From Gemmatimonadota bacterium (GTDB taxonomy: Bacteria; JBHIER01; G020348925): a stretch of 64,000 nt of DNA. The position numbers and the translations under genes are program-made. Below are positions 43,931 to 64,000 of the stretch, in pieces. The notes under the pieces are model-generated. The model did no database searches and had not been told where the DNA came from. It saw only the letters and a program-made list of their open reading frames with translations. Where the stretch lies: positions 2,247,688-2,311,687 of the forward strand of contig CP070758.1 of NCBI GenBank assembly GCA_020348925.1. The letters are read 5' to 3'. Within the stretch, counting starts at the first letter, position 1. The number at the start of each line of letters is the position of its first letter.

Positions 43931-46900
43931 CTACTTCATGAGCACCATCCGCCTGGTGGCTGTAAATTCACCCCGATTGTCCTGCGATGTTCCCTTCGCC
44001 ACAATTCGGTAGAAATACACCCCACTGGCTATTACATTCGCATCCCACGTGGCTGTGTAGTATCCGGCCTCCTGTTCACCATCAACCAAAACGTCCACCA
44101 CCTGCCCCAAGAGGTTATATACCGATACCTTCACCTTCGCAGCCTCCGGCAAGGCATATTCGATATGCGTCACCGGGTTGAACGGATTCGGATAATTTTG
44201 AGCCAGGCTGTACTGCGTCGGCGCAAAATCACCGGCCTTCACCGTAAAAACCGATCCCTGTCCAAACGTAATACCCTCGTCAACCGTAAAAACAATAGGT
44301 TCCTCCACCTCAATACGCACCGCTTCCACGTCCTCGGCGACTGCGAAGGGGACACGCACCACGGAACCAGAACCGGCTTCTATAGCCGTTCCCCGCATAC
44401 TCGACAAAAAGACCACCAGCTCATCACCGACAATCCTGGAACGCACGTCCATTCCTTGAGACCTCTGCGTCAGATCAGGTTTTCCTGGTATCACAACGTT
44501 CTGATCGTACCTGAAGCGCAGCACCACGCCGGCCACATCCACCTCCGAGGAGACACTCACAGGCACCGCCACCGTCCGCCCCGACACGCCCACCACACCT
44601 CCCACCTCAACATCGGCCACGGCCACCTTCGGATCGCACACCCCCACCGCCCGGTTGATGCACTTCATCAAATCGATGACGTTCACCAGACCATCGCCGT
44701 TGGCATCGGCCGCCCACATCGGCTGACCGGGCTGCGTGACGTCCGGGATCTCATCACCATTGCCGTCCCCGGGAAACGGGTCCTCACCCACAATGTGATC
44801 CAGCATGCCAAACAGATCCATCAACGTCACCGTCGTATCCGGCACCCCGGATGAACCCGTCACATCACACTTGGCCGGCACCATGTACCCCCCAAAACAG
44901 ATCTGACCCTTGTCCTCGTACTTCAGACACAGCGGCTCCTTGGGTTGGCCCTCCCAATCCGGCAGCCCATCCAGAATCACCGAACCGTACCATATATCTG
45001 CACACCGGCCTGCCGGCGCACCCGCCAATATCTCAAAGGTCACCGTCACGATCGACAGCAAACCCTCGTGATAATACCGCGGCGGCAACGCACAGTGCGC
45101 AACAGGATCATTCGGCAATATCCTCGGATGCACCGGCGTCGAATACAGCGCGATCTCGTGCAACCCAGGCACCAACTGCCTATGGACAAGCTCAAACCCT
45201 GACGTCCGAACCGTCGTCGCCACATCCACCACCCTCAGGTAGTCTCCCTCATAACCGAGTTCGATCTGGGCAGCCGATACCGGAGCCTCGTTGTCCAGCA
45301 TCAAACCGATATCGACCCTGTCGCCCGGAAACAACGTCGGATCCTGACCGCCACAACTCTCCGAATACTTGAAGGCCACCTTGATCCCGCTGGTGTCCCG
45401 GATGCACATGCCGGTAAAGGGCATGAACTTGATCTCCACCACATTCGTATCCCGGTCACAGTACCCCCTGACCGCATGCACCACCACGTGGGCCGGCATA
45501 CTGAGCGGGGGTGTCAGCCCCTTGGGTATAATGGTCAGGTTGGCCTCAGCCGTCTCCCCGGGCTCCAGCCAGAAGTTCTCCTCATCAAAGGCATACTCCC
45601 ACCCATCCGGTATGTGCGGAGGGAAAGCGCTCTCGTCGATCCACAGGTCGATATGATCGAGATACGGCTCCTCGTTGTAAACCGGAATCGGTATGGTCAC
45701 CGGCTTCCACGTCGAATCCTCATTCACCCAGCGGTGCTTCGACCACAACCAGCGCTCGCAATCGCGCAGATATTCAGTCGTGGAATCCTCCACCGTCCAG
45801 CGCCATGTCCCCGGCTCCTCTCCGGGCGTCAAACAGTGACGGCGGACCACCGGATAGTCGATGACGATGTTCCGAGCATACTGCTGATAATAGGTACACT
45901 CCAGATCCTCGTACTCGAAAAACGGCGTCCTGTAATGGTACGGGGCCACCACCTGACGCCCGAATCCTCCTATACCTCCCCACAGGACAGTATCATACAC
46001 CATCACCTCAAAGGCCGGAAAGAAGAGACCCCAGGGTGCCAGGCCGAAGCTGATCTTGGGATAGGCGCTGTTGGGACCGTCGTTGACCACCGTGGCAGAG
46101 ACATCGTAGGCCGTGTTGTGACACGGATACATGGGGCTCCATCGGATCTCCTCCACGTGCACCGGCTGGACAGGACGTCCGTCAGGTCCCAGATACATGT
46201 GCTCCGGGTAGGGCAGAAACTCGATCTCAACATAACCCCACTCGCCGTTGCACTTGAAGGCCTTGACCTTGATGACGACGGACCCCTCGGGCTCCACTCC
46301 TCCGGGCCAGACGGTTATAATCACATTCTCCGTGGCCCCAGGTGGCAGGATCCGATCCGTCCAGCTCAGATCGGCCCGCCAGTTCTCCGGCAGGTCGGTC
46401 ACCAGCAGCTCAAACCGCATGGGATCGGCGTGCTCGTTGTGCACCGGTATGGTGATGGGTGCCAGGCCCCACCGCACAGGCTCCTTGTCCCACGGCCCGT
46501 CAGGCCAGACCGTCATCCGACCCCGACGACTGTAATACCATGTCGGTTCACGATTCTCAGAACAGAAATACATATCCCGCGTCCATTCCACCATCATGTT
46601 TCGCGACCACCAGTTATGCCTGTCAACACTGTGCCTGAACTGACACTCACATGCCACGCTGGAAGATCCCATCGCCGGAATCTGCACCTCGCCCCCACAA
46701 ATCTGCCGAGATTGAGCAATGAACAATCCCCACTGAGCCTCCCAAAACCGATAGTTCAAGGTCACATCCACATCACATTCATTGTGAAATGTTGCTCTGA
46801 CCGCATACGGATCACCCTCGCAGGGATACTGCCCACGATACGGATGGCTCCAGGTGATGTCCGGCTCACGGATCTTGACACACCCGGGCTCGTAGTCCAG

Positions 46901-47994
46901 GCAAACCTTCACCATGTATTCGTACCCGGGGAAGCACTTCCACTCCTCCTGCTGCCCGTTGTATATCCACGAGTGGCTCACCGCATGGCCCGCATCCCCC
47001 AACATCCTCGGCCGGCTCTCACCCTCCTTCATTCTCCAGACGATGAAGAAACAGCTCTTGGCCGGGATCTGGATGCAGGGACCATCCCCCAGATCGACCT
47101 CCTCCCACTCCCAGTTACCGGTAAAATCGCCGGCTCCAACCTCTCCCAAAAATACACCCAGCGGGCTTTCCCCGGGTGGGAGGGGCTGGCAGGTGGGACA
47201 GGAGCCCCCACGACTCGTATAGACCCACAGGTCCACGGACCCCGGATCGTACCACTGGAAAAAGATCGAGGTCAGCCTGGCCTCGCCCTTGGGATTGTAA
47301 AAGCCCACGGCGTAGGTGTCCTGATCGGCAAAAGCAGGACCGCTGCCCACGAGGAAATCCTCTGCCGGCTCGCTCAGGTTATGGTCCAGGCACGTATCCC
47401 CCCACCCCACGGCCGGCAATCTCCGCAGCGGGAAATTATTATTGAAGACGTCCGGATCATCGGCCTCGATATAAAAGCTCAGGTAGTAGTTTGTGCAGGC
47501 GTTGGATGAGAGCACACCCGTATTGCCCACTTCACCGTAACCCAGGACCACTGGATTGGGTCCCGAAGGATAGTAGGGTCCCGCCTGGGGGGGGCAGTCT
47601 GTGCTCAGGGACATGCTCGGCGGATAGGTCACGGTCAGGGTGTACAACCCTCCCCCGGGTGGAGGGTCGAGGAGAAACTGGTAGTATCCTGAGGACCCAT
47701 TATGGAGAATCGTGATGGTGCCCGGCCCGTTCACCTCGACCCGGCCTCCGGTAATGATCTCCCCTGAGAACTCATCGTAGAAATAGCCGGTGGGATCGTA
47801 GTCGGCGTAATCGGGAATACCGTCCCCGTCCCGGTCCCCGTCCCCCTCGTCACTGTCCAGTACGCCGTCGTCGTCGGAGTCCTGGCAGTGGTTGCCAATA
47901 CCGTCGTCATTGAAATCCTCCTGGCCGGGATTGTATACCGCCGGACAGTTGTCACAGACGTCACCCACCCCGTCCACATCCCCGTCCTCCTGAC
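43931..47994 (-). CDS. Paralog A (5' end lost in gap): TSP3-like repeats, conserved core, cohesin-like, dockerin-like, cohesin-like, T9SS-A/FlgD-like CTD
   Basis: [17 protein letters not shown] repeats; core starts [32 protein letters not shown]...TRRMVLMK. Confidence 0.85.
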
Positions 47995-48094
47995 NNNNNN
48001 NNNNNNNNNNNNNNNNNNNNNNNNNNNNNNNNNNNNNNNNNNNNNNNNNNNNNNNNNNNNNNNNNNNNNNNNNNNNNNNNNNNNNNNNNNNNNN

Positions 48095-48711
48095 CGGAGC
48101 AGGACGTGGCCGGAGTGCTGCTGCGGTTCCGGTACGATCAGAAGAGTCTGACGGCCGGGGAGCCGGAGTTGACGGTTCGGTCGGAAGGGATGGATGTGAG
48201 CTCTCGGGTGATCGGGGATGAGCTGGTGGTCTTTGTCTCCAGCATGAGGGGAGAGGCTATCGAGGCCGGAGCCGGTTCGGTGGTGCGTGTGCCCTTCACC
48301 CTGACCGGCGATGTGTCGGAGGTGGGGATCGAGGTGGTTGAGCCCGTGGTCTTCACCGTGGATGAGGCCATTGTTTTCGGTCATGGCTCGATGTTCGTGG
48401 TCAAATCCGAGGATCTGGTGCCGGCCGAGTACGGTCTGGCCCAGAATTACCCGAATCCGTTCAACCCGGTGACGTCGATCGCCTACAGTCTGCCTCAGGC
48501 GGCCAAGGTGAAGGTGTTTGTCTACAACACGTTGGGACAGGTTGTGGCCGAGCTGGTGGACGGCGATCAGGAGGCCGGGCATCATGTGGTCAAGTGGGAT
48601 GCCGGAGAGTTGGCCAGTGGTGTCTACTTCTACCGGATTGAAGCGAATGGAACATCCCGAGAAAATCGGGGCGACTTCACAGCCACCCGACGCATGGTGT
48701 TGATGAAATAG
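48095..48711 (+). CDS. Paralog B, C-terminal fragment (cohesin-like plus CTD; 5' part lost in gap)
   Basis: Highly similar to 53011-53603 at the DNA level; ends QNYPNPFNP...TRRMVLMK. Confidence 0.85.
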
Positions 48712-48760
48712 AAAGGTTCAAAAGTCTAAAAGCATGTCCTGAGCTAAGGCGAAGAATCTC

Positions 48761-48947: not shown

Positions 48948-48976
48948 TTGACATAAAAGGGCTTACATAGTATATT
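48948..48976 (+). promoter_or_regulatory. sigma70-type promoter of paralog C
   Basis: TTGACA-N17-TATATT. Confidence 0.6.
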
Positions 48977-49127: not shown

Positions 49128-52100
49128 ATGGAAATGAAAAGGTGCATATGGTTCATGGCGGCATTTCTGATTGTGCTTGCTCCGAGCATTTTCGCCCAGT
49201 CTGTCCTTTCGGAGTTACAGATTACGACGGACACGAATACGCAGTGGCGACCTTCCGTCTACGGCAATTATATAGTCTGGCAGGATCAGCGGAACGGAAA
49301 TGCCGACATCTACGGGTACAACCTGGCCACGAATACGGAGTTTCCCATCTGTATCAATACATTTAACCAGGAGCACCCTACCATCTACGGTGACATCGTG
49401 GTGTGGTACGACTGGAGGAATGTCAACGCAGACATCTACGGGTACGATCTGGCCACGAATACGGAATTCCCGATTTGTTTGAATCCGAATACCCAGCGAC
49501 TACCCGTCATCTGGGAAAACTTCGTCGTCTGGAACGATTGGCGGAACGGCAACTGGGATATTTACGGATACGACCTTTCGACTGCTACCGAATTTCCCAT
49601 CTGCACCAACGGGGCGCATCAATATTTCCCCAGAACCGGCGGTCGCTATGCGGTCTGGTGGGACGAGAGAAATGGCATCGGCAACTGGGATATCTACGGG
49701 TACGACCTGCTCACGAATACGGAATTCCCGATCTGTTTGGATCCGAATAACCAGGGATACCCTGCCGTGCACAATGATATTGTGGCCTGGATTGACGACA
49801 GGGACGGCAACTGGAGTATTTACGGCTACAATGTTACCACGGCGACGGAGTTCCCCATCTGTACCAATACATCCGACCAGTTCCGTCCGTGGGTGTCGGA
49901 TAATGTTGTGGTCTGGTTCGATCTGAGGAACGGGAATCAGGACATTTACGGTTATCAACTCTCCACGGGGACGGAGTTTCAGATCACGACGAACACGAGC
50001 GACCAGAGGCATCCCAAGATCCACTGCAACCGGGTGCTGTGGCACGATCGCCGGGACGGGGATTACAATATATACAGCGCTACCCTTGATATCAATATGT
50101 GTGGGAGAGCCGTGGCCTGGGGAGATACGTGCATGAATCATGTGGGGCCTGACGATCCCGAGGATTTTCTGCTGGGAAGCAGCCCGCTGTACGCGGACCA
50201 GGATCTCTATGCGGTGGGTTTTTACAATTCGAAGGGACTCGCCATGGTGAACTCCATCTCCTTTCAGTGGTACGATCCGGGATCGGTGGATCTGTGGGTG
50301 TATCTGGGGCGTGAGGATTATTGTCCCCATTGTCAGCCGCTTTTGACGGGGGAGAGTCCCTTGGGTAGCATGTTAGGTCAGGTCGGGTCCGGTGATTTTA
50401 TTGGCAACTGGGAATGGGAGAAGGTGGATTTGGGTGATGGCCCGTGCATTCTGATCCCGGCCAAGCGTTGCTTCTATGTGGTGTGGAAGATGAAAGATGG
50501 AATGGATCGACCGAGGATACTGGGTGACGCCGAACATTCAGACAGTTTCTCGTGGATCTACAATGCGGAGTATGGATTGTGGAAGTGCTTTCCAGGATAT
50601 GAATATATGGTGGAAGTGTGTTTGGACTATCAACCCGGGTGTATAGAAATTCAAGGGCCGGATATTACGTGGGATCATCCGTACCGCGGTGAGTATCCGT
50701 GTGTCTGCGATGATTACGCAGTGCGGGCCGTTTTCCACAACGAGTGTGATGAGGGTGAGTTCGTGGATGTTGAATTTTACGAAGCGCCGTGGGGATTATT
50801 CACTGTGCCGACAAGCGGGGGTGCTTTGTGCGTGGAGACGGCCTTTGTCCCCGGTGAGGGAAGGGATACGGTCGTGTGTGCCTGTGAGTATCATCATCAT
50901 TCTGAGGAGCACAACGGGTGGGCAAGGAACATTGTTGTGGCCTGGACGCGGGATATGGAATTTTGCTACGATACTCCAGGTCCAACATGGTATATGAGCC
51001 GGCGATGTAGGATGACGATCTGGCCGGACGGGCCGTGGGACAAGGAGCCGGTGCGTTGGGGTTTGGCACCGATTACGATTCCCGTGTACAATGAGCATCC
51101 GGGGGAGATGCGCTTTGAGTTGCATATAGCTGATTTACCTTCAGAGTGGGATGCGGATTTGAGTTGGGATGACGAGATGTTGTCACCTGAAGAGACTCGG
51201 AATGTTTTATTGACTGTTTGGCCTGATGGTGACGAGCCTGAGGGTCCGGTTGTCATCAGGGTCATGGCGTTTAAGTGCAACGGTGAGTGGGGCGAGGTGG
51301 AGATCGAGTTCATGCCCTATCCGGAGCATTTCTTCCTGGGTCCGGACGGTCGGCCGGTACAGCCGGTGCACGTGCAGGACATCCGCTGGAGCCCACGCTA
51401 TCCGTGCGAGAACAGGCCCTACGATGTCTCGGTGACGGTGGTCAACGACGGGCCCAACAGCGCCTATCCGAAGATCAGCTTCGGCCTGGCGCCGTGGGGT
51501 TTCTACTTTCCGCCCTTTGAGGAGATGGTCTACGACACGGTGTTGTGGGGCGGCGTCGGCGGTTTCGCCCGTCAGGTTGTGGCGCCCTATCATCACAAGA
51601 TCCCGTGGTTTATACACGAGGATCTGGAGTGCAACTACTATCAGCAGTATGCGCGGAACATCGTCATCGACTACCCTGTGATCCGCCGTCACTGTCCTGA
51701 TCCTGATCTGTTACCCCTGGTATGGACGGTGGAGGATTCGACAACGGAGTATTTCAGGGACTGCGAGCGGTGGATGTGGCCGAAGCACCGGTGGGTGAAC
51801 GGGGATACGACCTGGAGGCCGGTGATCGTTCCGGTACCCCTGTACAACGATGAGCCCTTTCCTGTTCTTTTCTGGATGTGGGTGGAGTCGGCACCGGTTT
51901 CTCCCGGTGGGGAGATGTGGGAGACAACTTTTGATGGAGGAGATCCAACATTAGAGATAGATGGCGTTCTCCCGGGGGAAATGGAGGAGGTCAATCTGTC
52001 CATTATCCCCAAGGGGGATGCTCCGCCAAGTGCGTTGCCGGACCATGTGGTGGTGGGTGCGGCGAAGTGGGATATACTCGGCGGATCCGGAAGCGAATAC

Positions 52101-53603
52101 TTATCATGCTTCTATGACACCACGTTTATCGATATCAAGTTCATGCCGTACACGGGCATGTGTATCCGGGACACCAGCGGGATCAAGGTCGGCTACAAGT
52201 ATTCGGAGACGTGCAGTGGCGATGATACAATCTATCCGACCCTGCTGCCCGGCGATCAGGTGAGTATCGGCCTGATGCTGGACAACGAGTACCCGGTCTC
52301 GGCGGCGCAGATCGATCTGTGGTACGAGTCGGCTTACATGCGGGTGGTGGACGTTCAGACGACGACGCGGACGATCGGCTTTGAGCTGGTGCACCGCGAG
52401 TTGGCGCCAGGAACGCACGAGATCGCGTTGTACTCGACGCCGACCCATCCGATAATTGTGCCCAATCCGCCCAGTTCGCATTGCGAGCTGCCGCCCGGGT
52501 ACAATGATGTGGGTTTGTTGTCGATCGTGACGGTGACGTTTGAGATTTTGCCCGGAGCACCTGCGGGTGAGTGTGCGGACATCTGGTACGGGACGGTGAT
52601 CCTGGACGGGCTGCCGGACTGGGAGGGTCATCCCAAGGAGCCGCTGTGTTTGAAGTTTGAGGACAAGGGTCAGATCTGTTACGGTGGGTACATTGTGCCC
52701 AACAAGTGCGACGTGACGGGCTTATCCGCGGCACCGGACACCATGGTGACGTTGATGGATCTGTTGGCCATCTTGAACCACCTCACGGGGAAGAAGAGCC
52801 TGGGATCGTTGGATGACGTTTTTGATCCGACGACGTTGATCTGGGCGGCGGATGCCAATGGCGATGGGCTCGTCAACATCATCGATCTGATGAAGTGCAT
52901 CAACCTGGCCGTGGGCGTTTGCGATCCGAAGGTGGCCGTGGCCGATGTGGCGGTGGGCGATGCGGTCGGAGTATCGGGTCGGACGGTGGCGGTGCCGGTG
53001 GATGTGACCTCGGAGCAGGATGTGGCCGGCCTGCTGCTGCGGTTCCGGTACGATCAGGAGATTCTGATGGCCGGTGAGGCCGAGCTGACGGACCGGGCAG
53101 CGGGCATGGATGTTGTCACCAAGGTGATCGGGGATGAGCTGGTGGTCTTCGTCTCCAGCATGAGGGGCGAGGCTATCGAGGCAGGTGCGGGTTCGGTGGT
53201 GCGTGTGCCCTTCACGCTGAGTGGCGATGTGTCGGAGGTGGGGATCGAGGTGGTTGAGCCCGTGGTCTTCACCGTGGATGAGGCCATTGTTTTCGGTCAC
53301 GGTTCGATGTTCGTGGTCAAATCCGAGGATCTGGTGCCGGCCGAGTACGGTCTGGCCCAGAACTACCCGAATCCGTTCAACCCGGTGACGTCGATCGCCT
53401 ACAGTCTGCCTCAGGCGGCCAAGGTCAAGGGGTTTGTCTATAATACGTTGGGACAGGTTGTGGCCGAACTGGTGGACGGTGATCAGGAGGCCGGGCATCA
53501 TGTGATCAAGTGGGATGCCCGGGATCTGGCCAGCGGTGTCTATTTTTACAGAATCGAAGCGAATGACTTTGCGGCCACGAGACGGATGGTGCTGATGAAG
53601 TAA
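49128..53603 (+). CDS. Paralog C: signal peptide, 7-repeat beta-propeller, conserved core, cohesin-like, dockerin-like, cohesin-like, CTD
   Basis: Seven ~42-aa VW.D.R.GN.DIYGY.L.T.TEF repeats; core starts AVAWGDTC (~50109); [32 protein letters not shown]. Confidence 0.9.
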   Translation: MEMKRCIWFMAAFLIVLAPSIFAQSVLSELQITTDTNTQWRPSVYGNYIVWQDQRNGNADIYGYNLATNTEFPICINTFNQEHPTIYGDIVVWYDWRNVNADIYGYDLATNTEFPICLNPNTQRLPVIWENFVVWNDWRNGNWDIYGYDLSTATEFPICTNGAHQYFPRTGGRYAVWWDERNGIGNWDIYGYDLLTNTEFPICLDPNNQGYPAVHNDIVAWIDDRDGNWSIYGYNVTTATEFPICTNTSDQFRPWVSDNVVVWFDLRNGNQDIYGYQLSTGTEFQITTNTSDQRHPKIHCNRVLWHDRRDGDYNIYSATLDINMCGRAVAWGDTCMNHVGPDDPEDFLLGSSPLYADQDLYAVGFYNSKGLAMVNSISFQWYDPGSVDLWVYLGREDYCPHCQPLLTGESPLGSMLGQVGSGDFIGNWEWEKVDLGDGPCILIPAKRCFYVVWKMKDGMDRPRILGDAEHSDSFSWIYNAEYGLWKCFPGYEYMVEVCLDYQPGCIEIQGPDITWDHPYRGEYPCVCDDYAVRAVFHNECDEGEFVDVEFYEAPWGLFTVPTSGGALCVETAFVPGEGRDTVVCACEYHHHSEEHNGWARNIVVAWTRDMEFCYDTPGPTWYMSRRCRMTIWPDGPWDKEPVRWGLAPITIPVYNEHPGEMRFELHIADLPSEWDADLSWDDEMLSPEETRNVLLTVWPDGDEPEGPVVIRVMAFKCNGEWGEVEIEFMPYPEHFFLGPDGRPVQPVHVQDIRWSPRYPCENRPYDVSVTVVNDGPNSAYPKISFGLAPWGFYFPPFEEMVYDTVLWGGVGGFARQVVAPYHHKIPWFIHEDLECNYYQQYARNIVIDYPVIRRHCPDPDLLPLVWTVEDSTTEYFRDCERWMWPKHRWVNGDTTWRPVIVPVPLYNDEPFPVLFWMWVESAPVSPGGEMWETTFDGGDPTLEIDGVLPGEMEEVNLSIIPKGDAPPSALPDHVVVGAAKWDILGGSGSEYLSCFYDTTFIDIKFMPYTGMCIRDTSGIKVGYKYSETCSGDDTIYPTLLPGDQVSIGLMLDNEYPVSAAQIDLWYESAYMRVVDVQTTTRTIGFELVHRELAPGTHEIALYSTPTHPIIVPNPPSSHCELPPGYNDVGLLSIVTVTFEILPGAPAGECADIWYGTVILDGLPDWEGHPKEPLCLKFEDKGQICYGGYIVPNKCDVTGLSAAPDTMVTLMDLLAILNHLTGKKSLGSLDDVFDPTTLIWAADANGDGLVNIIDLMKCINLAVGVCDPKVAVADVAVGDAVGVSGRTVAVPVDVTSEQDVAGLLLRFRYDQEILMAGEAELTDRAAGMDVVTKVIGDELVVFVSSMRGEAIEAGAGSVVRVPFTLSGDVSEVGIEVVEPVVFTVDEAIVFGHGSMFVVKSEDLVPAEYGLAQNYPNPFNPVTSIAYSLPQAAKVKGFVYNTLGQVVAELVDGDQEAGHHVIKWDARDLASGVYFYRIEANDFAATRRMVLMK

Positions 53604-54113: not shown

Positions 54114-54381
54114 TAGGCGTTGAAGTGTGGCATTTTTTTGAGGGGCAAAAATGTACAAAAGAATGCTGCTCACAACCCATATTGACGTACATAGTTTTCC
54201 TGATCTCCCTTTTTCAAACGAGAGGGCTTTCAGTAAGGGATAATTATGTATTGTAGGTGAAGATTATGCGAGTGTTCCTTTGAATCGAAAGTATTGAGGA
54301 AGACGAACCTCTTTGGATAACGAATGCAGGCAAAACATGAAATTCATATGTTATCGATATTCCCCTCAAGGAGAGAAAAGT

Positions 54382-57300
54382 ATGAGTAGCAGAAGAAGAG
54401 AGAAGATCATGTGGGTCTCATCTCTGATAATATTTTTACTGGTTTTATTTGGTTCGATGAATTCTATTGCCCAGCCTTATGAGGTCTGGGTGGACGATGA
54501 TTATTGCGACGGCTGCGGGAACGACGGTCATACTTGGGGCTACGATGCCTTCGATAATATCCAGGATGGTATTGACGCTGTCTCCAGTAGTACCGTATGG
54601 GTACTACCGGGGACATATTCAGCAATGAACGATATCAATGCGAATGATGTGGAGGTGCTTTCAACCGGTGGACCCGAGGTGACCATCATCGATGGCGGAG
54701 GTTTGGCCAGCTACGGTTTTCAAATTAACACTGACGTGGATAACGTTCGAATAGATGGGTTTACTATTACGGATTGTACCAATGGTATCGTTGTAAATAC
54801 ATTGGCGGACGGGACGGAAATTCACAACAACTACATTGAAGGAAACAGTCTTTTTGGTGTGTCCACTGGTCCGCCCGTCAACGCTGAGAACAACTGGTGG
54901 GGCTCCTGCACCGGCCCGTCACATTCAACAAATCCTCAAGGATTAGGGGATGCGGTTTCCGATAATGTCGATTTTGCCCCGTGGCTCTTCCCTTGCTCCT
55001 ATGCATTCGGCGATACGTGTTTGAATTATATGCTCCCGGGCAATCCTGATGAATATCTGGAGAGCAGCGACAATCCGACGGAGGATTGGTGGGCGGTGGT
55101 ATTTCGCAATCCCGGCGGAGCGGCCAAAATCACGTCCATCTCCTTCAGGTTCTTCGATGGGGGTGTCATCGATCTGTACGTCTTCACCTGCGGTGACCTG
55201 GTTCCTGAGGACGGTCTGTGCGAACCGGGTCAAATTTACGAGGTCTACGACTTTTTGGGAGATTCCCTCACCTCCGCCGTTCGCCACGCCTTTTTAGGAA
55301 CCGGCCTGCACCCGATCTTCAATTGGGAGAAGGTCAATCTTGAGGACTCATGCATTACGGTCGGGCCGAAAAGCTGCTTTATCGTGGCCTGGCACAAAGC
55401 GGTCAATGCGAATCCGCGGATCATGGCCGATGATACCGAAGGGGCGGGGACCCATAGCTGGATCTGGAACGATGAGCTGCAACAGTGGAAGTGTTTCCAG
55501 AACCTCGAATACTGTGTCGACGTCTGCCTCGACTACCAGCCCGGGTGCGTTACTCTGGAATGGCGGGATATCACGTGGGACCCGCTCCATCCTTGCGTGT
55601 GTAACGATTACAACGTCACGGCCGTTTTTTACAACGAATGCAACACCTCTCAGCAGATAGAAGTGGGATTCTACGAGGCCGACTGGGGTTTGTTCTTCCT
55701 ACCGGGACCGAACCGGTGCAGCAGTCAACTGTACACCGTACCGGCGAAGGGGTACTTGGAAGTGCCTTGTAACTGTGAGTATCACCATGACACGGATCCG
55801 GGCAATTCCTGGTCCCGTAACGTTGCTGTGAGGTACAACCGCGACGTGGACTTCTGTTGGGATGAACCGGAAACCGTATATCGCTATGAACGGCGGTGCC
55901 GCCGGACCATCTGGCCGGACGCCGATTACAGCGGCGCGTACGGATCCGTACCCGTTCCCATAACGAACAATGAGGGCCAGCAAATGCAGTTCGATGTTTC
56001 GGTCATCGACACCTCCGGCCCTACGGCCTGGAACTTTCGCTTTGCCAGTGGGAAGACGGATACGACGTTCTGGCTCGATCCACTGGCAGTGAACACACTG
56101 GACCTCATCGTTGAGGATACCCAACCGATAACTCAGCCTCTTGTTGTGTGGGTCCAGGCGTTGCAATGCAACGGCGAGGTGGGCGTGGCCGAGATCGAGT
56201 TCATGCCTTACAGTGAACCGAGTGACCAGGAGTGGTTTCTCAGTATTGGGACTGCCCAGTGGGGGATTTTCTTTCCCACAACGGAGACGTATTATGACGC
56301 TTGGCCAGGTCTTTATATGGATGAATTCATCAACCCTGATACTTCCTTTGTCGTTCCCATGTATCCATGTGAGGACTTAACGCCTTTTACGCCTTATTTC
56401 AGATGGGACTCCAATGGAACTGTGATACTCTATGCCCAAAAAGAATCGTTTTTGTGGCATCAACAGGGCCGGCAGTTCTATCGGAACGTGGTCCTTGATT
56501 TTCCAGAACTGAAACGCCACTGCTTTCCTGTGGATTCTGTGGCTACACTTTATTACCGGGACTGCCGGCGTATTATCTGGGCGGAGAGCCGGTGGCCTTG
56601 GGACGGGGAGATCGTTCCCATCCCTGTTTATAACGAAGAACCTTTCGAAGACACTATCGAACTTTCCGTGGAAACGGCCCCAACGGGATGGACCTATTTT
56701 CTGACTCAGACCAGTATGACCCTGGCACCGGCTCAGGCCGATACCGCGTTCCTGACGGTGATTCCGCAGGGGGCGGATCCACCTGCACCTCCGTATCATG
56801 CGATCGCGGTACAGGCGGTGAAAGGGTTCTGCGACCGCGATACGGGATACCTGAATATTGAATTCATGCCCTATGCCTGTCTATGCATTCACGATTATGC
56901 GGGCAAAGTGGTCGAAAATATCGGTATCGAAGATCCGACCCTTATGCCGGGAGATACGGTCCTGGTGAATCTCATGCTGGAGAACGATTATTACGTCAGA
57001 GCTCTTCAGGTCGGCGTTGTCTACGATCCTTCGTATCTGGAGCCTGATGACGTGTTATTGACGGCGCGCACGGCGAATATGAGATTGGACTACAGCCTGT
57101 CCGCACCTCCCGGAACACTTTTTATCGCTATCGATACAACATGGGTTTCTCCAGACAGTATCGATCCCAGTCCCATGGGATACCTCTGTCAGGAGAAATC
57201 GTCTGAGGACTTTCTGAAGGTCGTCACCATCGATTTTAACATCATTGATAACGCCCCTCCCGGGGTTTGTTCAAACCTGTATCCGGTGAATGTCGTCGTC

Positions 57301-58314
57301 ATCGGATTTCCCGGCTTGATATGGGGAATGGAAGGGGAGTTGACGGAGCAGATATGCGCCTGCGTCGACCACGGGCAGATCTGTTACGGCGGGTACGTCT
57401 TCCCCTTGAAGTGCGATGTGGATGCCGATACGACCGTGAGTCTGGCGGACTTGTTCCTGATTCTGGAGCACATTATCCGTGTCCATGAGCTGAGTGATGA
57501 CATTACTGTGCCCGGTGATTCCCTGTGGGCGGCGGATGCCAATGGCGATCAGGTCGTCAATATCCTTGACCTCATGAAATGCATCAATAAATCCGTCGGG
57601 CGATTTGATCCTCGGGTTGCCGTTCCGTACGCTGCGGTCTCCTTGCCGGAGGCAGTATCGATGCCATCTTCAGGCAGGATGGATATACCCGTTGGCCTCG
57701 AGATCGATGAGCCGCTGGCCGGAGCCCTGTTCAGACTGCGGTACGACCGATCGATTTTTGAGATGGGACGTCCTGAATTGACTGCGGATCAACTCTCGTT
57801 GAACTTGGAATACGGTTTCGTGGGAGAGGAGCTGTGGATTCTCGTTTCAGGTGAGGCGGCCGGAGGTATTGCGGTCGGATCGAATCCAGTGATGCGTCTG
57901 CCCTTTGATGTGGTCGGCGGGGAACTGGGTCAATGGAACCTGCGTTTCGAGGAGACCATTCTCTTTACGGCGGACGAACGGATCATTATTACCGAGCCGG
58001 CTTCAGTTTGGGTGAAGCCCTTGGAGGTTGTGCCGACTGTTTATTCGCTGTCGCAGAACTATCCCAATCCTTTCAATCCGGAGACGGAGATTCGGTATGG
58101 GTTGCCGGAAGCCGGGGACGTTCGATTGGATGTTTACAATCTCCTGGGGCAGAGGATCACCACCTTGGTGAACGAGCATCAGGAGGCCGGATACAAGTCG
58201 GTCGTGTGGGATGGGCGGGATGAAAACGGACAGGACGTATCCAGCGGAATGTACTTTTACGCGCTGACATCGGGGACATTTGCGGCCACAAAGCGCATGG
58301 TCCTGATCAAATAG
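54382..58314 (+). CDS. Paralog D: signal peptide, short right-handed beta-helix, diverged core, cohesin-like, dockerin-like, cohesin-like, FlgD-like CTD
   Basis: VWVDDDY, NIQDGIDA, IDGFTI and NAENNWWG motifs; core starts YAFGDTC (~55000); [24 protein letters not shown]...WDGRDENGQDVSSGMYFY. Confidence 0.88.
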   Translation: MSSRRREKIMWVSSLIIFLLVLFGSMNSIAQPYEVWVDDDYCDGCGNDGHTWGYDAFDNIQDGIDAVSSSTVWVLPGTYSAMNDINANDVEVLSTGGPEVTIIDGGGLASYGFQINTDVDNVRIDGFTITDCTNGIVVNTLADGTEIHNNYIEGNSLFGVSTGPPVNAENNWWGSCTGPSHSTNPQGLGDAVSDNVDFAPWLFPCSYAFGDTCLNYMLPGNPDEYLESSDNPTEDWWAVVFRNPGGAAKITSISFRFFDGGVIDLYVFTCGDLVPEDGLCEPGQIYEVYDFLGDSLTSAVRHAFLGTGLHPIFNWEKVNLEDSCITVGPKSCFIVAWHKAVNANPRIMADDTEGAGTHSWIWNDELQQWKCFQNLEYCVDVCLDYQPGCVTLEWRDITWDPLHPCVCNDYNVTAVFYNECNTSQQIEVGFYEADWGLFFLPGPNRCSSQLYTVPAKGYLEVPCNCEYHHDTDPGNSWSRNVAVRYNRDVDFCWDEPETVYRYERRCRRTIWPDADYSGAYGSVPVPITNNEGQQMQFDVSVIDTSGPTAWNFRFASGKTDTTFWLDPLAVNTLDLIVEDTQPITQPLVVWVQALQCNGEVGVAEIEFMPYSEPSDQEWFLSIGTAQWGIFFPTTETYYDAWPGLYMDEFINPDTSFVVPMYPCEDLTPFTPYFRWDSNGTVILYAQKESFLWHQQGRQFYRNVVLDFPELKRHCFPVDSVATLYYRDCRRIIWAESRWPWDGEIVPIPVYNEEPFEDTIELSVETAPTGWTYFLTQTSMTLAPAQADTAFLTVIPQGADPPAPPYHAIAVQAVKGFCDRDTGYLNIEFMPYACLCIHDYAGKVVENIGIEDPTLMPGDTVLVNLMLENDYYVRALQVGVVYDPSYLEPDDVLLTARTANMRLDYSLSAPPGTLFIAIDTTWVSPDSIDPSPMGYLCQEKSSEDFLKVVTIDFNIIDNAPPGVCSNLYPVNVVVIGFPGLIWGMEGELTEQICACVDHGQICYGGYVFPLKCDVDADTTVSLADLFLILEHIIRVHELSDDITVPGDSLWAADANGDQVVNILDLMKCINKSVGRFDPRVAVPYAAVSLPEAVSMPSSGRMDIPVGLEIDEPLAGALFRLRYDRSIFEMGRPELTADQLSLNLEYGFVGEELWILVSGEAAGGIAVGSNPVMRLPFDVVGGELGQWNLRFEETILFTADERIIITEPASVWVKPLEVVPTVYSLSQNYPNPFNPETEIRYGLPEAGDVRLDVYNLLGQRITTLVNEHQEAGYKSVVWDGRDENGQDVSSGMYFYALTSGTFAATKRMVLIK

Positions 58315-58504
58315 AGGATGCTTTTTCAACAGAGAGGGCCACAACAAAGGAGGTAGAGACCAAGGGTTTTTGGCTATCATTCACGAGTTCCAATTCTTTT
58401 TTAAAATTCTAAAGATCTCACTTTTCGTAACGACAATTATGCAATCATTTTGAGATGTCAACATGCTCGTACAATATACAAGTTCAAGGACGAAGGAGGG
58501 ACCA

Positions 58505-61500
58505 ATGAAATCTCAGGTTACGATGAAAATGAATGCTGTTCTCTTCAGTTTTCTGATGGTCAGTCTGATCCTTGTTCTCACAGGGACGCGGGTTCATGCC
58601 AACGGACCCGTTCTTGAGGTCTATAAATGGGCCGATCCCATTGAGATTTGGCACAAAGACTGCGAACTGATCCCGAATCAGACAACGGTAACATGCTCTC
58701 TCATCGGTGGTGGGGACTGTGAAGTCGTGGGATTGCCCGTCGATGTGATGTTGGTCTTGGACCGCTCGGGAAGCATGTTGGGGACGCCTCTTGACAGTGC
58801 CAAAATCGGGGCAAACATCTTCGTCGATCTGTTGAGAGCCATTGACAACGCCGGTCTTGTCTCTTTTGGCGGGAAAGTGAAACTGAACATGAGTCTGGCA
58901 AAGATGATCCCCTTTGGCAAGACGCTGCTCCATGGGGCTATAGATGGACTCTATTCCGGCGGCAGCACACCTCTGGGTGATGCCATAGACATGGCCAACG
59001 GAAATCTCGCCCCGGCCTCGGCCAGTGGAGGAAAATATCAAGTCCTTCTGACTGACGGGGACCCTTTAACCTTTTCCGGGACGACCGATCCAATCGATGC
59101 GGCCGTTGAGGCGGCTTCCTTGGGGATAACGATCTTCGTCATCGGATTGGACCTGGCTTCGAATCCGATCCCCCCGGATCAGAAGGTGTTGCTCCAGAAC
59201 ATCGCCGCCATTACCGGGGGTCAATATTACGATCCCTCGTTTCCAGGCGCTCTCGTGTCGATCTTCGAGGATATCGCCTATCAGATCATCTGCACCGTGG
59301 GCAAGGATATCGTGGTGACCGAGACGGTCCAGAACTATCTCAACGTGCTCGGTGCCTGTTTCGATTACAGCCATTTCAGCAAACCTCCCGTGTCGTGCAC
59401 CATCCTCGGGGACGGATCGGTGAGGATGACCTGGGAGATCGACAAGCTCGAGGTCGGGGAGAGCTGGAGCGTCTCCTTTGTTGTTGACTCCGATATCATT
59501 GGCGAGAATTTGGAGATCGACGTCATGGCCAGCTCCAAGGTGAATTATGTCAATTACCTGGGCCCGGCTGTCGCCCAGATCCCCCAGGCCTACGTCACCG
59601 TCAAATCCTGCACGCCCGATCTCGAGGCGACCAAAACGGATAACGAGATCCCCTACGCTGAAAAATATGTCGACGGGAACTTCAGTCCCGGCGATACAAT
59701 AAAGTATGACGTTGTGATTTACAACGACGGTTATGATGCGACAGAGGTCTTTTACTGCGATACTGTTGATGTTCATACAACCCTCATCGCCGACAGCATC
59801 AAAGCGCCCGGAGCACCGGTTACTGTCACAGTGGCCGGGGACAACTCTTCCTTCTGTGTCGATATCGGAGTGATATCGGAGCAGGGGACGGTCAACATCA
59901 GCTTTCTTGTGGAGATAGAGGAACCTTTTCCCGAGGGATTGGATCACGTGGTCAATCAGGGATTTGTTCTCAGCAAAGAACTGGACGATGTTCCAACGGA
60001 CGATCCCGAAACAACGCCGCCGCCGCCGGGGGAGGGGGACGATCCGACCATCACTCCGGTGATAGCGGGGGCCGTTGTCCAGGCGACCAAGAGTTACCAA
60101 ATTATTCAGGGTGAGACGACCCCTGGAACCGTGACGCCCGGTGGTGTCATAGAGTATACGGTGGCATTACAAAACATCGGAACTCAGAGTGTGAGCGGTT
60201 TGACGTATCACGATAATATGCCGAATTACACAACGTACGCCGGCAACCTGCAAAATACGTGCGGGGGTACTGTAACGGAACCTGCAATTGGCTCGACAAA
60301 TCCGTTGGTGATCACAAATATCTCACTCGCACCCAACGGCGGCTGCACCATCCAATTCCGGGTTCAGGTGGACCCCACTTTACCTGCCGGCGTGTATGAG
60401 GTGTGCAACCAGGGTATCGTCTATCTTCCCGAGGGGAGCATCGTGACCGACGATCCCGACGAACCCGGCCTGGACGATCCCACGTGCACGCCAGTGGAAA
60501 CAGAAATTTTTATCACTGCAATGAAAACGGACGCTGTGGTTGGAGGCGGTGACCTTGAGCCGGGCGGATATGTGGAATATACGGTGACCCTGGAGAATAT
60601 AGGCAACCAGACCGTAACCGGTCTGACCTTTCAAGATCCGACTCCTTCCTACGCGACGTACGCCGATTTTCTGGATCAAGACTGCGGTACCTTCGGAGGA
60701 ATAACGAACCCCTTGACCATCACGAATATTACCCTTGAGCCCAATATTCCCTGTACCATCACCTATCGGGTCCAAGTCGATGCCTCCGTTCCCTTCGGCG
60801 TATATCAGATCTGCAACCAGGGAGTTGTTTCGAATGTTCCCGGACAAGGGGACGTGTTGACCGACGATCCGGACACAACACCACCGGATCCCGGATACGG
60901 TGACGATCCCACATGCACGCCGTTGAAGACAGAAGTGTTGATTGATGTCACCAAGGATGATGGCTTGGACTATGATACCGACTACGTCATTCCGGGTGAG
61001 ATCATTGAGTACGAGATACGGTTGAGGAACACCGGCAACCAGGAAGTCACTGGATTGACATACTACGATGAAATACCGCTGTATACGACGTTCGAGGGAG
61101 GCCTGAATAACCAGTGCGGCGGGACGCTTCAAGCACCGATCCCAAGTCAGGGGGCCACGGATCCGATTCATATCACAGGCATTACGCTGGCCCCCAACGG
61201 AATTTGCACCATAACCTATCAGGTCAGGGTCAACAGCAGCGTTCCTCCGGGAGTCGATGAGATCGTCAACCAGGGCTTTGTTCAGAATATTCCCTTCCCT
61301 GAACTGCCGCCGGGATCAGAGCCGTCGGACGATCCTGAGACCGGTACGAACAACGATCCCACCAGAACGCCCCTGCGGACGGGCGTCGATATTTGGATCA
61401 TCAAGACCGTCAGTGTGGTGGGTGGGGGACAACTCTTTCCCGGAGGTCAGCTGCGCTACACCATTCGCATCGGGAACAACGGGCCTGAGGATGCATCCGA

Positions 61501-63523
61501 CCTCACCTTCCAGGATGCCATCCCTCAATACACGCAATTGAGCAGCGCTATTACCCAAGATTGCGGGGTTCTCCAGACCTCCACCCCGACCATCAACATC
61601 ACGAATATAGATATCGATGCCGGCGAGGAGTGCACCATTGGCTTCACGGTCACGCTCGAAGGAACGATTCCCGACAATGTGACTGAGATCGTCAATGGCG
61701 GTGAGGTCTGCCAGATCCCCGGGGCGGAGTGTGAGGATGACACCGTCAGGATTCGGATTCAGCGGCCACCCCAAGCCTGGGATCCTGAGGTCTACAAGGT
61801 GGCGACCAACCTGACGAACCCGGGACAGCCCTTGGATCCCGGGCATGTGATCGAATACGTGATCACCATCGAGAATCCCATGGACGTGGGCGTGGAGGAT
61901 CACATCTTTGAGGATCCCATCCCGGAGTGGACGCATACGTTGATCCTCGTCAATCCTGCACCTGGCGATCCTCGGAATGAATCGACGAGCGATGTCGTTC
62001 GGATCACCGGTATTGATATTCCCGCCGGTGGAACCTTTGAGATCGTCTTCAGAGTGACTCTTGATGTGGAAGTTCCAACCAATGTCACGCAGATATGCAA
62101 CCAGGGGAGAATCCACGATCTGCCCGACGAAAACGATGAGCCCTCGGACGATCCCAGTACCCGTCAGATCAACGATCCGACCTGTCTCGAGGTTGCTCAT
62201 GAAATTGAGGTGTGGGATCCTGAGATTGAAGCCTTCATGGTGGCCCTGGATGTCAACGGTGGTGGGTTGGTTGGTGGTGATATCGTTGAATATACTGTAA
62301 CCATGACGAATTTGGGCCCCTATGATGTCTTTACCCTCAATTTCTACTGTCCGCTTCCGGATCACACGGAACATCTCACTGTCACCGGCATACCCTTCGG
62401 GACCGTCGATATCTCACTCCCGGATATGGTCTTCATAACGGGCATGCCCCTCAGCGTTGGTCAGACCATTGAGATTGTATTTTCGGCACAAGTGGTGTCA
62501 TTCCCGCCCGAAGGCGTTGCGGAGATTTCCTGTCAGGGTTGGGTCGGAAATATTCCCGAAATGGAGGATGAGTACACGGACGATCCCGCCACACCGGAGG
62601 AGCACGATCCGACGGTACTCACCTTGGATTCGAACGGGATGAAATGCGATATCAACGACGACGGTGAGGTAACCATAACCGATCTCTTTATGCAGCTCAG
62701 GCATATTACGTACGATGTGGAACTGACAGGAGACGAATTCTGGGCTGCCGACTTCAATGGCGATGAGACCATCAATATCATCGATCTCATGAGCTGCATC
62801 AATGTCTCTGTGGGAAACACGCCGAAGCGCGGAGAGCCGGGCATCGAGATGTCCCTGGCCGATGACATCGCCGTTGTCCACAATGTCGTTTCGGTGCCCT
62901 GCCAGTTGCGAACGACGCTCCCGGTGGCTGGAGCTTGGTTCAGACTGGACTACGACCCGACACGCCTCACGCCGGGGCCGGCACAATTGACAGAACAGAG
63001 TGCTCACATGGCTCTTGCTCAGAGAGATGTCGGTCATTCCCTCTGGATGTTGGTCTACAGCATGGAGGGGGAAACGATTCAGGCGGGAAATGCACCTCTC
63101 GTCTCGGTTCCCTTTCGGAAGGCCCAGGATCTCGACGGAGAGACGGTGGTCAGAATCGACGAGGCGATCGCTTTTCTGCCGCTCGGGGAGGCGATCATCC
63201 TGGAATCCGATTCGCGCGTGATCTCATTGAAATCGACACTCCCTGAAGACTTTGCCTTGGAACAGAACGTGCCCAATCCGTTCAATCCCGAGACGCGCAT
63301 CAGGTACCGGCTGCCCCATGAGGCTCATGTCACCCTTGAAGTGTACAACGTTCTCGGACAACGGGTCATTACTCTTGTCGACGAAGAGCAAACCGCTGGT
63401 GATCGAACGGTATCGTGGAATGGTATCGATGACAGCGGCATCCAAGTTCCAAGTGGAGTCTACTTCTATACCATTACGATGGGTGAATTTTTAGCAACGA
63501 AGAAGATGGTCTTGGCGAAATAG
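58505..63523 (+). CDS. Paralog E: signal peptide, vWA domain, seven DUF11-like repeats, dockerin-like, cohesin-like, FlgD-like CTD
   Basis: LDRSGSM / GGSTP / LTDG MIDAS motifs; repeats K...PG..I.Y.....N.G...D..P...NQG; CDINDDGEVTITDL and ADFNGDETINIIDL; QNVPNPFNP; AAGGAGG RBS. Confidence 0.9.
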   Translation: MKSQVTMKMNAVLFSFLMVSLILVLTGTRVHANGPVLEVYKWADPIEIWHKDCELIPNQTTVTCSLIGGGDCEVVGLPVDVMLVLDRSGSMLGTPLDSAKIGANIFVDLLRAIDNAGLVSFGGKVKLNMSLAKMIPFGKTLLHGAIDGLYSGGSTPLGDAIDMANGNLAPASASGGKYQVLLTDGDPLTFSGTTDPIDAAVEAASLGITIFVIGLDLASNPIPPDQKVLLQNIAAITGGQYYDPSFPGALVSIFEDIAYQIICTVGKDIVVTETVQNYLNVLGACFDYSHFSKPPVSCTILGDGSVRMTWEIDKLEVGESWSVSFVVDSDIIGENLEIDVMASSKVNYVNYLGPAVAQIPQAYVTVKSCTPDLEATKTDNEIPYAEKYVDGNFSPGDTIKYDVVIYNDGYDATEVFYCDTVDVHTTLIADSIKAPGAPVTVTVAGDNSSFCVDIGVISEQGTVNISFLVEIEEPFPEGLDHVVNQGFVLSKELDDVPTDDPETTPPPPGEGDDPTITPVIAGAVVQATKSYQIIQGETTPGTVTPGGVIEYTVALQNIGTQSVSGLTYHDNMPNYTTYAGNLQNTCGGTVTEPAIGSTNPLVITNISLAPNGGCTIQFRVQVDPTLPAGVYEVCNQGIVYLPEGSIVTDDPDEPGLDDPTCTPVETEIFITAMKTDAVVGGGDLEPGGYVEYTVTLENIGNQTVTGLTFQDPTPSYATYADFLDQDCGTFGGITNPLTITNITLEPNIPCTITYRVQVDASVPFGVYQICNQGVVSNVPGQGDVLTDDPDTTPPDPGYGDDPTCTPLKTEVLIDVTKDDGLDYDTDYVIPGEIIEYEIRLRNTGNQEVTGLTYYDEIPLYTTFEGGLNNQCGGTLQAPIPSQGATDPIHITGITLAPNGICTITYQVRVNSSVPPGVDEIVNQGFVQNIPFPELPPGSEPSDDPETGTNNDPTRTPLRTGVDIWIIKTVSVVGGGQLFPGGQLRYTIRIGNNGPEDASDLTFQDAIPQYTQLSSAITQDCGVLQTSTPTINITNIDIDAGEECTIGFTVTLEGTIPDNVTEIVNGGEVCQIPGAECEDDTVRIRIQRPPQAWDPEVYKVATNLTNPGQPLDPGHVIEYVITIENPMDVGVEDHIFEDPIPEWTHTLILVNPAPGDPRNESTSDVVRITGIDIPAGGTFEIVFRVTLDVEVPTNVTQICNQGRIHDLPDENDEPSDDPSTRQINDPTCLEVAHEIEVWDPEIEAFMVALDVNGGGLVGGDIVEYTVTMTNLGPYDVFTLNFYCPLPDHTEHLTVTGIPFGTVDISLPDMVFITGMPLSVGQTIEIVFSAQVVSFPPEGVAEISCQGWVGNIPEMEDEYTDDPATPEEHDPTVLTLDSNGMKCDINDDGEVTITDLFMQLRHITYDVELTGDEFWAADFNGDETINIIDLMSCINVSVGNTPKRGEPGIEMSLADDIAVVHNVVSVPCQLRTTLPVAGAWFRLDYDPTRLTPGPAQLTEQSAHMALAQRDVGHSLWMLVYSMEGETIQAGNAPLVSVPFRKAQDLDGETVVRIDEAIAFLPLGEAIILESDSRVISLKSTLPEDFALEQNVPNPFNPETRIRYRLPHEAHVTLEVYNVLGQRVITLVDEEQTAGDRTVSWNGIDDSGIQVPSGVYFYTITMGEFLATKKMVLAK

Positions 63524-63766
63524 AAGTGAAAAAGATTAGAGGGTTTCTTTAACATTAATATTGGAGAACAGGGAGAAAGGCCCTCAGGTTTTTCTGGGGG
63601 CTTCTCCCATTTCCGTTCCTGAATGTTTCGAACAATAGAGACGTATTGTATTGAATACGAGGTTGGGTTCAATTGAAGAAAGAGGGTCTTTATGGATGTG
63701 AGGCCCGATTTTTTCATCGGTAGGAGGAATAGTACAGGAGCCTTTGTGAAAAGGGAGGCTAACACG

Positions 63767-64000
63767 ATGCGAAAAACAGTTTTGGGTATCTTTTTCTTTT
63801 TCATTGTGGCAGGCAGCGGTATTATCGATCATGGAATCGCGCAGGTTCAAAAGAATCCCAACGATTATCTTCAGGATGCGACACTGTCGGTGGAGTCTGA
63901 AGCCGGGATCCCTGGGAGTACGGACAATGTGGTTTCCATCTTCATGAATAATGGGGTGTCCGTGTACGGGGTCCAGTTCCGACTGGCATACAATCCCCAA
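63767..64000 (+). CDS. Start of a further secreted protein with an N-terminal cohesin-like domain (runs out of window)
   Basis: GGGAGG RBS; hand translation MRKTVLGIFFFFIVAGSG...GIPGSTDNVVSIFMNNGVSVYGVQFRLAYNP matches the cohesin-like strands in paralogs A-E. Confidence 0.75.
   Translation, partial: MRKTVLGIFFFFIVAGSGIIDHGIAQVQKNPNDYLQDATLSVESEAGIPGSTDNVVSIFMNNGVSVYGVQFRLAYNPQ

Follow-up and report, generated by a model that had tools for sequence, protein, structure and literature searches.

What do secreted proteins build when cohesin-like and dockerin-like modules stand in one and the same chain? The question is raised by a 64,000-nucleotide stretch of a Gemmatimonadota genome (GenBank assembly GCA_020348925.1, contig CP070758.1, positions 2,247,688 to 2,311,687), which we refer to as the window. 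Six genes or gene parts between its position 43,931 and its end, named A to F here, were described in an earlier note, made from the sequence alone, as a family of giant proteins with exchangeable N-terminal tips that might assemble into a non-cellulosomal surface scaffold. Our analysis argues for a related answer, to which we give an even chance: A to E would be fibrillar adhesin or display proteins, exported by a secretion system of type IX (T9SS) and anchored at the surface, that double as adaptor scaffoldins and whose feet are predicted to dock in trans.

The tail modules have cohesin and dockerin folds

Gene C (49128..53603, plus strand) encodes 1491 residues that comprise a signal peptide, a seven-repeat propeller, a core and a tail of cohesin, dockerin, cohesin and C-terminal domain (CTD). 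An AlphaFold model of the last 461 residues (pLDDT 81, pTM 0.48) was compared with solved structures. The first beta-sandwich (52233..52619), which carries a Pro/Cys-rich insertion and belongs to the class of cohesins that precede the dockerin, superimposed on cohesin 6kgc with a Z score of 15.1 and a root mean square deviation (rmsd) of 2.2 over 129 aligned residues. The second (52929..53300), of the class that follows the dockerin, superimposed on the Clostridium perfringens cohesin 2vo8 (Z 15.5, rmsd 2.7, 129 aligned). Both modelled modules are nine-stranded sandwiches of the PF00963 fold, and for both of them cohesins ranked above other immunoglobulin (Ig)-like folds. The dockerin (52701..52919) matched 2ccl_B (Z 10.2, rmsd 1.5, 62 aligned) and contains the two Ca-loop-helix repeats of a type I dockerin (PF00404), with Ca ligands in both loops. 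The CTD (53337..53600), of T9SS type A, matched that of mirolase (Z 8.9).

A phmmer search of the PDB with the C tail as a single sequence gave 0 matches; only a profile of 40 tails from the genome succeeded, matching solved cohesins over their full length (6kgc, E 1e-9, for the first cohesin) and solved dockerins (4dh2_B, E 1e-8). Pfam scores in the window genes were uneven (cohesin E 4e-10 to 0.03; dockerin 7e-7 to 0.045), and the T9SS CTD model TIGR04183 matched A, C, D, E and F. The earlier note had staked its proposal on the sandwiches being cohesins, and the fold comparison and the profile agree that they are; the dockerin and the CTD are equally real. A predicted complex of C's second cohesin with C's dockerin and Ca scored 0.08 against a mark of 0.32, in a run in which the controls did not fold, and weighs neither way on binding.

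We took the census of modules with our own hidden Markov models (HMMs) over 20,975 open reading frames (ORFs) of the genome (G000, 96% complete), with 0 matches on reversed ORFs. Together with Pfam and TIGR04183 it bears out that A, C and D end in cohesin, dockerin, cohesin and CTD and that E ends in dockerin, cohesin and CTD. It also found the cohesin and CTD claimed for B, itself only a 3' fragment, and the cohesin with which F begins. The assertion that the whole family combines dockerin and cohesin did not hold: F has an Ig-repeat stalk and no dockerin, and gene G after it is built likewise.

A docking system of unusual size in the genome

The census counted 291 dockerin ORFs, 104 cohesin ORFs (176 modules) and 252 ORFs with a CTD; 56 have both dockerin and cohesin. 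Dockerins without a cohesin make up 235 of the 291, and 23 ORFs that lack a dockerin have at least two cohesins. The order dockerin, cohesin, CTD recurs in 35 ORFs whose passengers differ widely, and in 33 of these the dockerin-to-cohesin linker measures 3-16 residues. Three apparent two-dockerin ORFs proved to be split matches on one domain, and no ORF has two real dockerins. The idea of a self-contained adhesin lattice is not supported in its original form, given this last count and the 235 dockerin ORFs without a cohesin, many of which carry hydrolases.

From these 235, 78 proteins chosen for cluster spread were scanned for passenger families, and 24 matched hydrolases or lyases. Half of the 24 are peptidases (M1, C1, M14, M6, S41, M28, C25, C39, S8); other catalytic passengers include GH13, GH31, GH57, GH99, a heparinase domain and phosphoesterases. 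The remaining scanned passengers are propellers, FG-GAP, LamG or Ig domains or have no family match. Among 28 scanned cohesin-bearing proteins, 9 match hydrolase or lyase families. GH9 and CBM3 gave 0 matches in G000 and in its relative G001, while control genomes gave positives; GH5 had one weak match in G000, and GH48 had none, in a search in which the control genomes gave none either. The genome thus holds dockerin-tagged enzymes and multi-cohesin scaffolds as a cellulosome does and lacks detectable GH9 and CBM3, which upholds the description as non-cellulosomal.

G001 is the only relative closer than "same domain" in our table of relatives. Its cohesin matches at E<=1e-5 number 56, where 29 unrelated genomes have 0-4; for dockerin matches at 1e-9 the figures are 48 in G001 and 0 in 9 other genomes. 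The best-matching DNA sets are sediment metagenomes, which may include the source. In 79 loci of other FCB-group genomes we found 13 ORFs with a cohesin or dockerin, none in the order dockerin-cohesin-CTD; the carriers are a Zixiibacteriota record (L099) and Ignavibacteria-group records (L094, L108), with cohesin-CTD, dockerin and cohesin-dockerin ORFs. Two clusters in G000 look scaffold-like. One (L017, G000:C1:4334158-4340957) sets a gene for six cohesins and a CTD beside two adaptors with three cohesins plus a dockerin; the other (L039, 2626821-2635766) is a row of genes that have, in turn, one, two, four and one cohesin plus CTD. A further dockerin match is interrupted by one in-frame TGA (G000:C1:4079993-4080334), which marks a broken gene or a recoded stop.

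The window dockerins form an asymmetric subtype

In A, C, D and E the dockerin is of a subtype, seen in 11 of 279 dockerins, that has one Cys before the first loop and another in helix 3, which probably form a disulphide; 3 further dockerins carry part of this signature only. At the recognition positions, whose numbering we take to be that of clostridial dockerins, the second face is nearly invariant in all 11 copies and the first drifts. In the remaining 268 dockerins a single consensus describes the two repeats, giving the symmetric face that goes with dual binding and that the window subtype lacks. Because the second face is nearly invariant while the first drifts, the sequences suggest that this one-faced dockerin binds in a single mode to a retained partner. 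Among the 279 dockerins, 228 have two intact Ca loops; in the dockerins of A and C loop 1 has an insertion.

All 11 dockerins of the subtype are followed by a cohesin of the post-dockerin class. The cohesins of the genome sort by position relative to the dockerin, and those of the window family form their own clades (support 0.95-0.99). Mean identity within cohesin classes is 20-26%, against 42% among dockerins. A post-dockerin model was trained on 22 non-family members, leaving out family and free-standing cohesins. It scored the 12 held-out family cohesins at 51-92 bits and three free-standing cohesins at 110-113 bits; the runner-up reached 66, and the median over 136 others was 21. Two of the three are proteins of signal peptide, cohesin and CTD, one of them encoded directly upstream of a dockerin-only gene; the third is a 199-residue lipoprotein (G000:C1:2246564-2247163, minus strand, 525 bases before the window) and a candidate monovalent membrane anchor. 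The existence of post-dockerin-class cohesins outside larger chains, as genes of their own, is a sign of binding in trans, and the dockerin-cohesin-CTD tail looks like a fusion of a cargo-dockerin with a cohesin-CTD.

A shared lectin-Ig core carries exchanged tips

The core of C (residues 326-1030, a stalk of about 700 residues) is matched in 16 ORFs of the genome, many ending at contig ends; 15 include the first core domain. A model of the core (8 sequences, pLDDT 64, second half of low confidence) places a jelly-roll in front and Ig-like domains after it. The jelly-roll (50112..50633) starts at a "GDTC" junction and is lectin-like: its best match was the lectin-like domain of Cwp84 (4ci7; Z 12.2, rmsd 2.9, 145 aligned), and an Atlas lead named PF18560 at 0.88. 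The all-beta stalk behind it (50634..52217, bounds approximate) has about four Ig-like domains, a pair repeated twice. Foldseek on the core model returned generic Ig arrays only. Similarity between members does set in at the "(W/F)GDTC" junction reported earlier, at the N-terminus of the lectin-like domain, although only 10 of the 15 genome members that hold this domain carry the motif itself.

The core family is rare, with 23 matches among 1.84 billion representatives, of which 9 are the genome's own ORFs and 3 are marginal. It was not found in G001, a fragmented genome (87% complete, 670 contigs), and no relative turned up when named genomes were scanned with protein C. The whole foot is retained in four homologues from other samples, P0006, P0009 and P0027 at full length and P0017 cut at its 5' end; the three full-length ones combine core and foot with different tips.

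As predicted, the tip of C is a seven-blade propeller (7 TIGR04275 repeats) and that of E has vWA and DUF11 (Pfam matches). The beta-helix of D has a Pfam match, a weak one (E 0.005). The "TSP3 tip" of A was misplaced: the segment is sub-distal, has no Pfam TSP_3 match and is followed by a module of about 150 residues common to three paralogues (58-68% identity), and the true N-terminus of A is missing. Besides propeller and beta-helix, tips in the genome include FG-GAP plus TSP3, a vWA plus DUF11 stalk on a core-bearing paralogue (31% identical to tip and stalk of E over 1430 aligned columns), an M6 metalloprotease with HYR and beta-helix, Cys-rich repeats with the 150-residue module as in A, and large repeats with a beta-helix; two core-family members have no tip at all. 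The statement that no catalytic module is present is true of the window genes and not of the family, whose member P0010 has an M6 metalloprotease tip.

Exchange of tips, also part of the earlier proposal, is seen as discordant identity on the two sides of one junction. P0027 and paralogue c156 are 85% identical upstream of it and 38% downstream, and the lectin domain of P0027 is 60% identical to that of D. Paralogues c126 and c101 share 58-60% identity with P0009 upstream of the junction and 38-39% downstream of it. As identity breaks at the junction in both cases, the comparison supports recombination of tips at one domain boundary, the N-terminal edge of the lectin-like domain. Exact shared tracts of 90-365 nt among paralogues fit ordinary homologous exchange. 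DNA run X1 gave no cover over the C tip (49224-50191); with about 69% of X1 read, this does not establish a strain-level swap.

Probable export by type IX secretion

A search of the genome for T9SS machinery found SprA (TIGR04189, 725 bits), PorU (NF033707, 737 bits, cut-off 420) with an adjoining PorV-family gene, and eight PorV-family matches in all. Models for PorM/PorN (GldM/GldN) had no match in the genome, but the controls were uninformative, a T9SS-negative control set giving no positive over the cut-off; the motor may be divergent. C to F have hydrophobic N-termini which, with the CTDs of A, C, D, E and F, are the marks of T9SS type A substrates.

Directly upstream of porU-porV lies a 577-residue cohesin-dockerin-cohesin-CTD gene (L066:6905-8635, G000:C1:3284904-3286637), and a T9SS-dependent M6-like gene follows. 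In 61 dockerin-CTD ORFs (e.g. L007:2602-3204) a conserved linker of 44-49 residues with two predicted amphipathic helices joins the two modules and could keep the dockerin face capped as long as the CTD is in place. A scan with the dockerin-linker-CTD alignment gave only CTD matches, from FCB-group phyla.

A model for the foot and its alternatives

In the arrangement we favour, each complete chain would run from a variable tip through the lectin-like domain and the Ig stalk to the cohesin-dockerin-cohesin foot and the CTD. SprA would export the chain, and PorU would then remove the CTD and tie the second cohesin to a surface glycolipid, as PorU cleaves the CTD and attaches cargo to surface glycolipid in the T9SS of Bacteroidota. 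Given the presence of PorU, the modules would be membrane-proximal and would cross-link feet on the cell surface rather than form a free three-dimensional matrix. Binding would depend on Ca and occur in trans rather than in cis, because the linkers are short. The dockerin would plug into a cohesin of another anchored chain, and the cohesins would accept further family members or dockerin-tagged enzymes. The outcome would be a shallow branched coat near the outer membrane, its tips outward and gripping particles or cells, in which docked enzymes digest the proteins and glycans of what the tips hold. By the logic of AB2 polymers, chains with two sockets and one plug give branched trees, not networks; as no ORF has two dockerins, self-assembly would yield trees and no closed lattice unless the cell surface supplies multivalency. 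Only 23 ORFs can branch; should specificity be shared, they would be capped by the 235 dockerin proteins that are monovalent.

Several observations weigh against this arrangement. The insertion in the first Ca loop and the altered first face suggest that the family dockerin may not cross-react with the general pool. Given their divergence, many cohesins may have lost or changed specificity, and in the family's second cohesin other residues take the place of the class's conserved Gln and Tyr (86% and 95%). The core family is absent from the G001 matches and so, by these matches, is not central to the docking system, and glycan binding by the lectin-like domain is predicted from its fold alone.

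A rival reading, which amends the idea of the earlier note, is a closed circle of partners, in which the one-faced dockerin recognises only the family's own cohesin or cohesins and the chains grow into hyperbranched trees or cell-to-cell tethers with mixed tips, uncapped by the roughly 235 enzyme dockerins. This is unlikely in our estimation, even though the Cys-Cys subtype is confined to 11 dockerins, always with a post-class cohesin behind it, the family cohesins form separate clades and the two tipless members look like pure spacers. There is precedent in the cohesins of Amy4 and ScaH, which bind their own dockerin (PMC4611034; PMC5301203). Such clades are nonetheless expected from common descent alone, the lack of any two-dockerin ORF makes a closed lattice impossible, and each complete member has its own CTD and needs no docking to remain attached. 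We are somewhat more doubtful still that the tail is simply an inherited C-terminal unit, with the dockerin as a Ca-stabilised, disulphide-locked spacer or cis clamp, the cohesins as inert stalk domains, and no assembly in trans. The recurrence of dockerin-cohesin-CTD in 35 ORFs with unlike passengers would fit it, as would the cohesins dispersed among the Ig repeats of giants without a dockerin, F and G for example, and the dockerin-less cohesin-CTD proteins of other FCB-group genomes (8 ORFs in the 79 loci). Linkers of the length found in 33 of the 35 ORFs, however, seem short for a cis complex, the single-chain model of the C tail shows no confident interdomain packing (pTM 0.48), and both the free single-cohesin genes and 163 dockerin-ended ORFs without a CTD make little sense unless binding occurs in trans.

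Those 163 ORFs bear on another explanation, compatible with the surface coat and in our judgement improbable, that the post-dockerin cohesin with its CTD is an export carrier. Fused in cis, as in A to E, it would export its own chain; in trans, a free cohesin-CTD protein would bind CTD-less dockerin cargo in the periplasm, take it through SprA and hold it at the surface. We rejected the idea that the dockerin-only genes are decayed CTD genes, as a CTD remnant lies downstream of just 1 of the 163. A hydrophobic N-terminal stretch is present in 140 of 160 dockerin-only ORFs (background 362 of 626, a weak test), 1 of the 160 is lipobox-like, and the only secretin match of the genome sits in the pilM-Q cluster. 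The high scores of the three free-standing cohesins in the post-dockerin model, the position of one of their genes directly before a dockerin-only gene, and the short cohesin-dockerin-cohesin-CTD gene directly upstream of porU-porV all favour a carrier. On the other side, free cohesins could be mere monovalent surface anchors, dockerin-only proteins could remain periplasmic or leave by the type IV pilus machinery or in vesicles, and two or three carriers would have to serve about 160 cargoes. Cohesin-escorted export by T9SS is not described in the titles and abstract openings found in the literature. A wider speculation, also unlikely, makes cohesin-dockerin pairing a second address code laid over T9SS: about 160 CTD-less dockerin proteins would be ferried through SprA as folded complexes, and the window family, with its private one-faced dockerin and two cohesins, would form an orthogonal sub-network of hyperbranched adhesin trees, grown on the surface or from cell to cell, with tips that recombination reshuffles at a fixed domain boundary.

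Relation to known systems

By analogy, the family might work like an adaptor scaffoldin of a cellulosome or amylosome fused to an adhesin, and it is not a cellulosome. With clostridial and ruminococcal cellulosomes the system shares type I-like folds, mostly symmetric dockerins, and adaptor and polyvalent scaffolds, whereas GH9 and CBM3 were not found here and what is carried is peptidases, phosphoesterases, adhesin folds and a small number of glycosidases. The CTD, the Ig stalk and a variable N-terminal tip recur in the type A cargo adhesins of T9SS whose stalks are of DUF11, ASH or vWA; the cohesin-dockerin-cohesin foot and the lectin-Ig core set the family here apart from these. Structure matches alone connect it with the X82 cohesins of C. 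perfringens (2vo8, 2w1n) and an Archaeoglobus cohesin (2xdh), non-cellulosomal examples of the fold and the best structural match of the post-dockerin cohesin. These are single modules on glycosidases or small archaeal proteins, and we know of no genome-wide expansion of them.

Ca. Stygibacter (Cloacimonadota) is likewise a diderm for which, from a metagenome-assembled genome, a multi-cohesin protein that resembles a scaffoldin and bears a CTD has been inferred, along with dockerin tags on S8 and C25 peptidases and on GH57; the paper names four enzyme types and one scaffoldin (PMC8542988), against 291 dockerin and 104 cohesin ORFs, chains with both modules and tip-swapped adhesins here. In Ruminococcus bromii Amy4 and R. 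flavefaciens ScaH the cohesin and dockerin of one chain have been shown to recognise each other (PMC4611034; PMC5301203), and multimerisation has been proposed for Amy4 (PMC4611034). The family resembles them in having both modules in one chain. They differ in being Gram-positive proteins with one cohesin per chain (linear, unbranched), enzyme or adaptor rather than long adhesin, and without T9SS. The module counts here exceed the published figures that we checked for the largest cellulosomes described, those of B. cellulosolvens (78 cohesins on 31 scaffoldins, >200 dockerin ORFs; PMC5590126) and R. flavefaciens (223 dockerin ORFs; PMC5301203); adaptor scaffoldins are the subject of a review (PMC12484212).

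What is new is a set of lineage-restricted T9SS adhesins with swapped tips and a branching foot of cohesins and dockerin, set in a non-cellulosomal docking system of exceptional size. With that system this sediment bacterium probably builds a sticky, enzyme-bearing coat. Cellulosome-type assembly is extended to a diderm lineage of which hardly any relatives have been sampled, where proteases and adhesins replace cellulases. In this family there is a candidate for an orthogonal cohesin-dockerin pair stabilised by a disulphide, and a natural monomer with two sockets and one plug. Escorted export, if true, would explain the passage of CTD-less proteins over the outer membrane of T9SS organisms and would provide a simple route for protein display.

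Organization of the locus

The assembly is a single string of 205 contigs joined by 100-N spacers. One spacer (47995..48094) lies between two unrelated contigs and separates A from B-F; because of this joint they are not demonstrable neighbours, and A is not physically linked to B-F. Contigs from four DNA runs gave, among the pieces listed, no bridge over this spacer and no 5' extension of A. The feature described at this locus is real and was partly mis-framed by the joint.

Gene A (43931..47994, minus strand) is truncated at its 5' end by the contig end. Its TSP3-like stretch and common 150-residue module are followed by the lectin-Ig core (about 47410-45353), first cohesin (45352-44957), dockerin (44878-44639), second cohesin (44629-44258) and CTD (44221-43934). 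All further genes of the group are on the plus strand. B (48095..48711) is the 3' end of another family member, with a second cohesin and CTD that are 91% identical in nucleotides to the tail of C. Gene D (54313..58314, 1333 residues, probable start 54382) has its beta-helix tip on a divergent core subtype, and its cohesins (56899-57312 and 57616-58002) flank the dockerin (57403-57603). Gene E (58463..63523, 1686 residues) lacks the core; its vWA and DUF11 stalk leads to the Cys-Cys dockerin (62636-62818), a cohesin (62828-63208) and the CTD.

Gene F starts at an ATG at 63767, occupies 63767..64000 and ends 8865 bases past the window; its 3057 residues comprise one N-terminal cohesin, 25 choice-of-anchor-D/ASH Ig stretches and a CTD. 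Gene G (3688 residues) has two cohesins, a long ASH/choice-of-anchor-D Ig array and a CTD. The giant stalks of F and G are located at L001:1692-10865 and from L001:10917 onward, and the cohesin at the distal N-terminus of F would make it a possible long-range display arm.

A scan for sigma-70-type promoters found 17 sites against 13.5 +/- 3.6 in shuffled sequence, hence no overall excess. A perfect match lies upstream of D (54085-54113) and one of 11/12 upstream of C (48948-48976); these suggest separate transcription of the two genes. Further contig spacers occupy 5490-5589 and 27535-27634. An apparent ORF at 4340-6676 was discarded as a false fusion, across the first of these, of the start of a BlaR1/M56 gene with the end of a dockerin gene. 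Two dockerin-ended genes lie early in the window on the minus strand, at 2317-4098 and 4340-5489.

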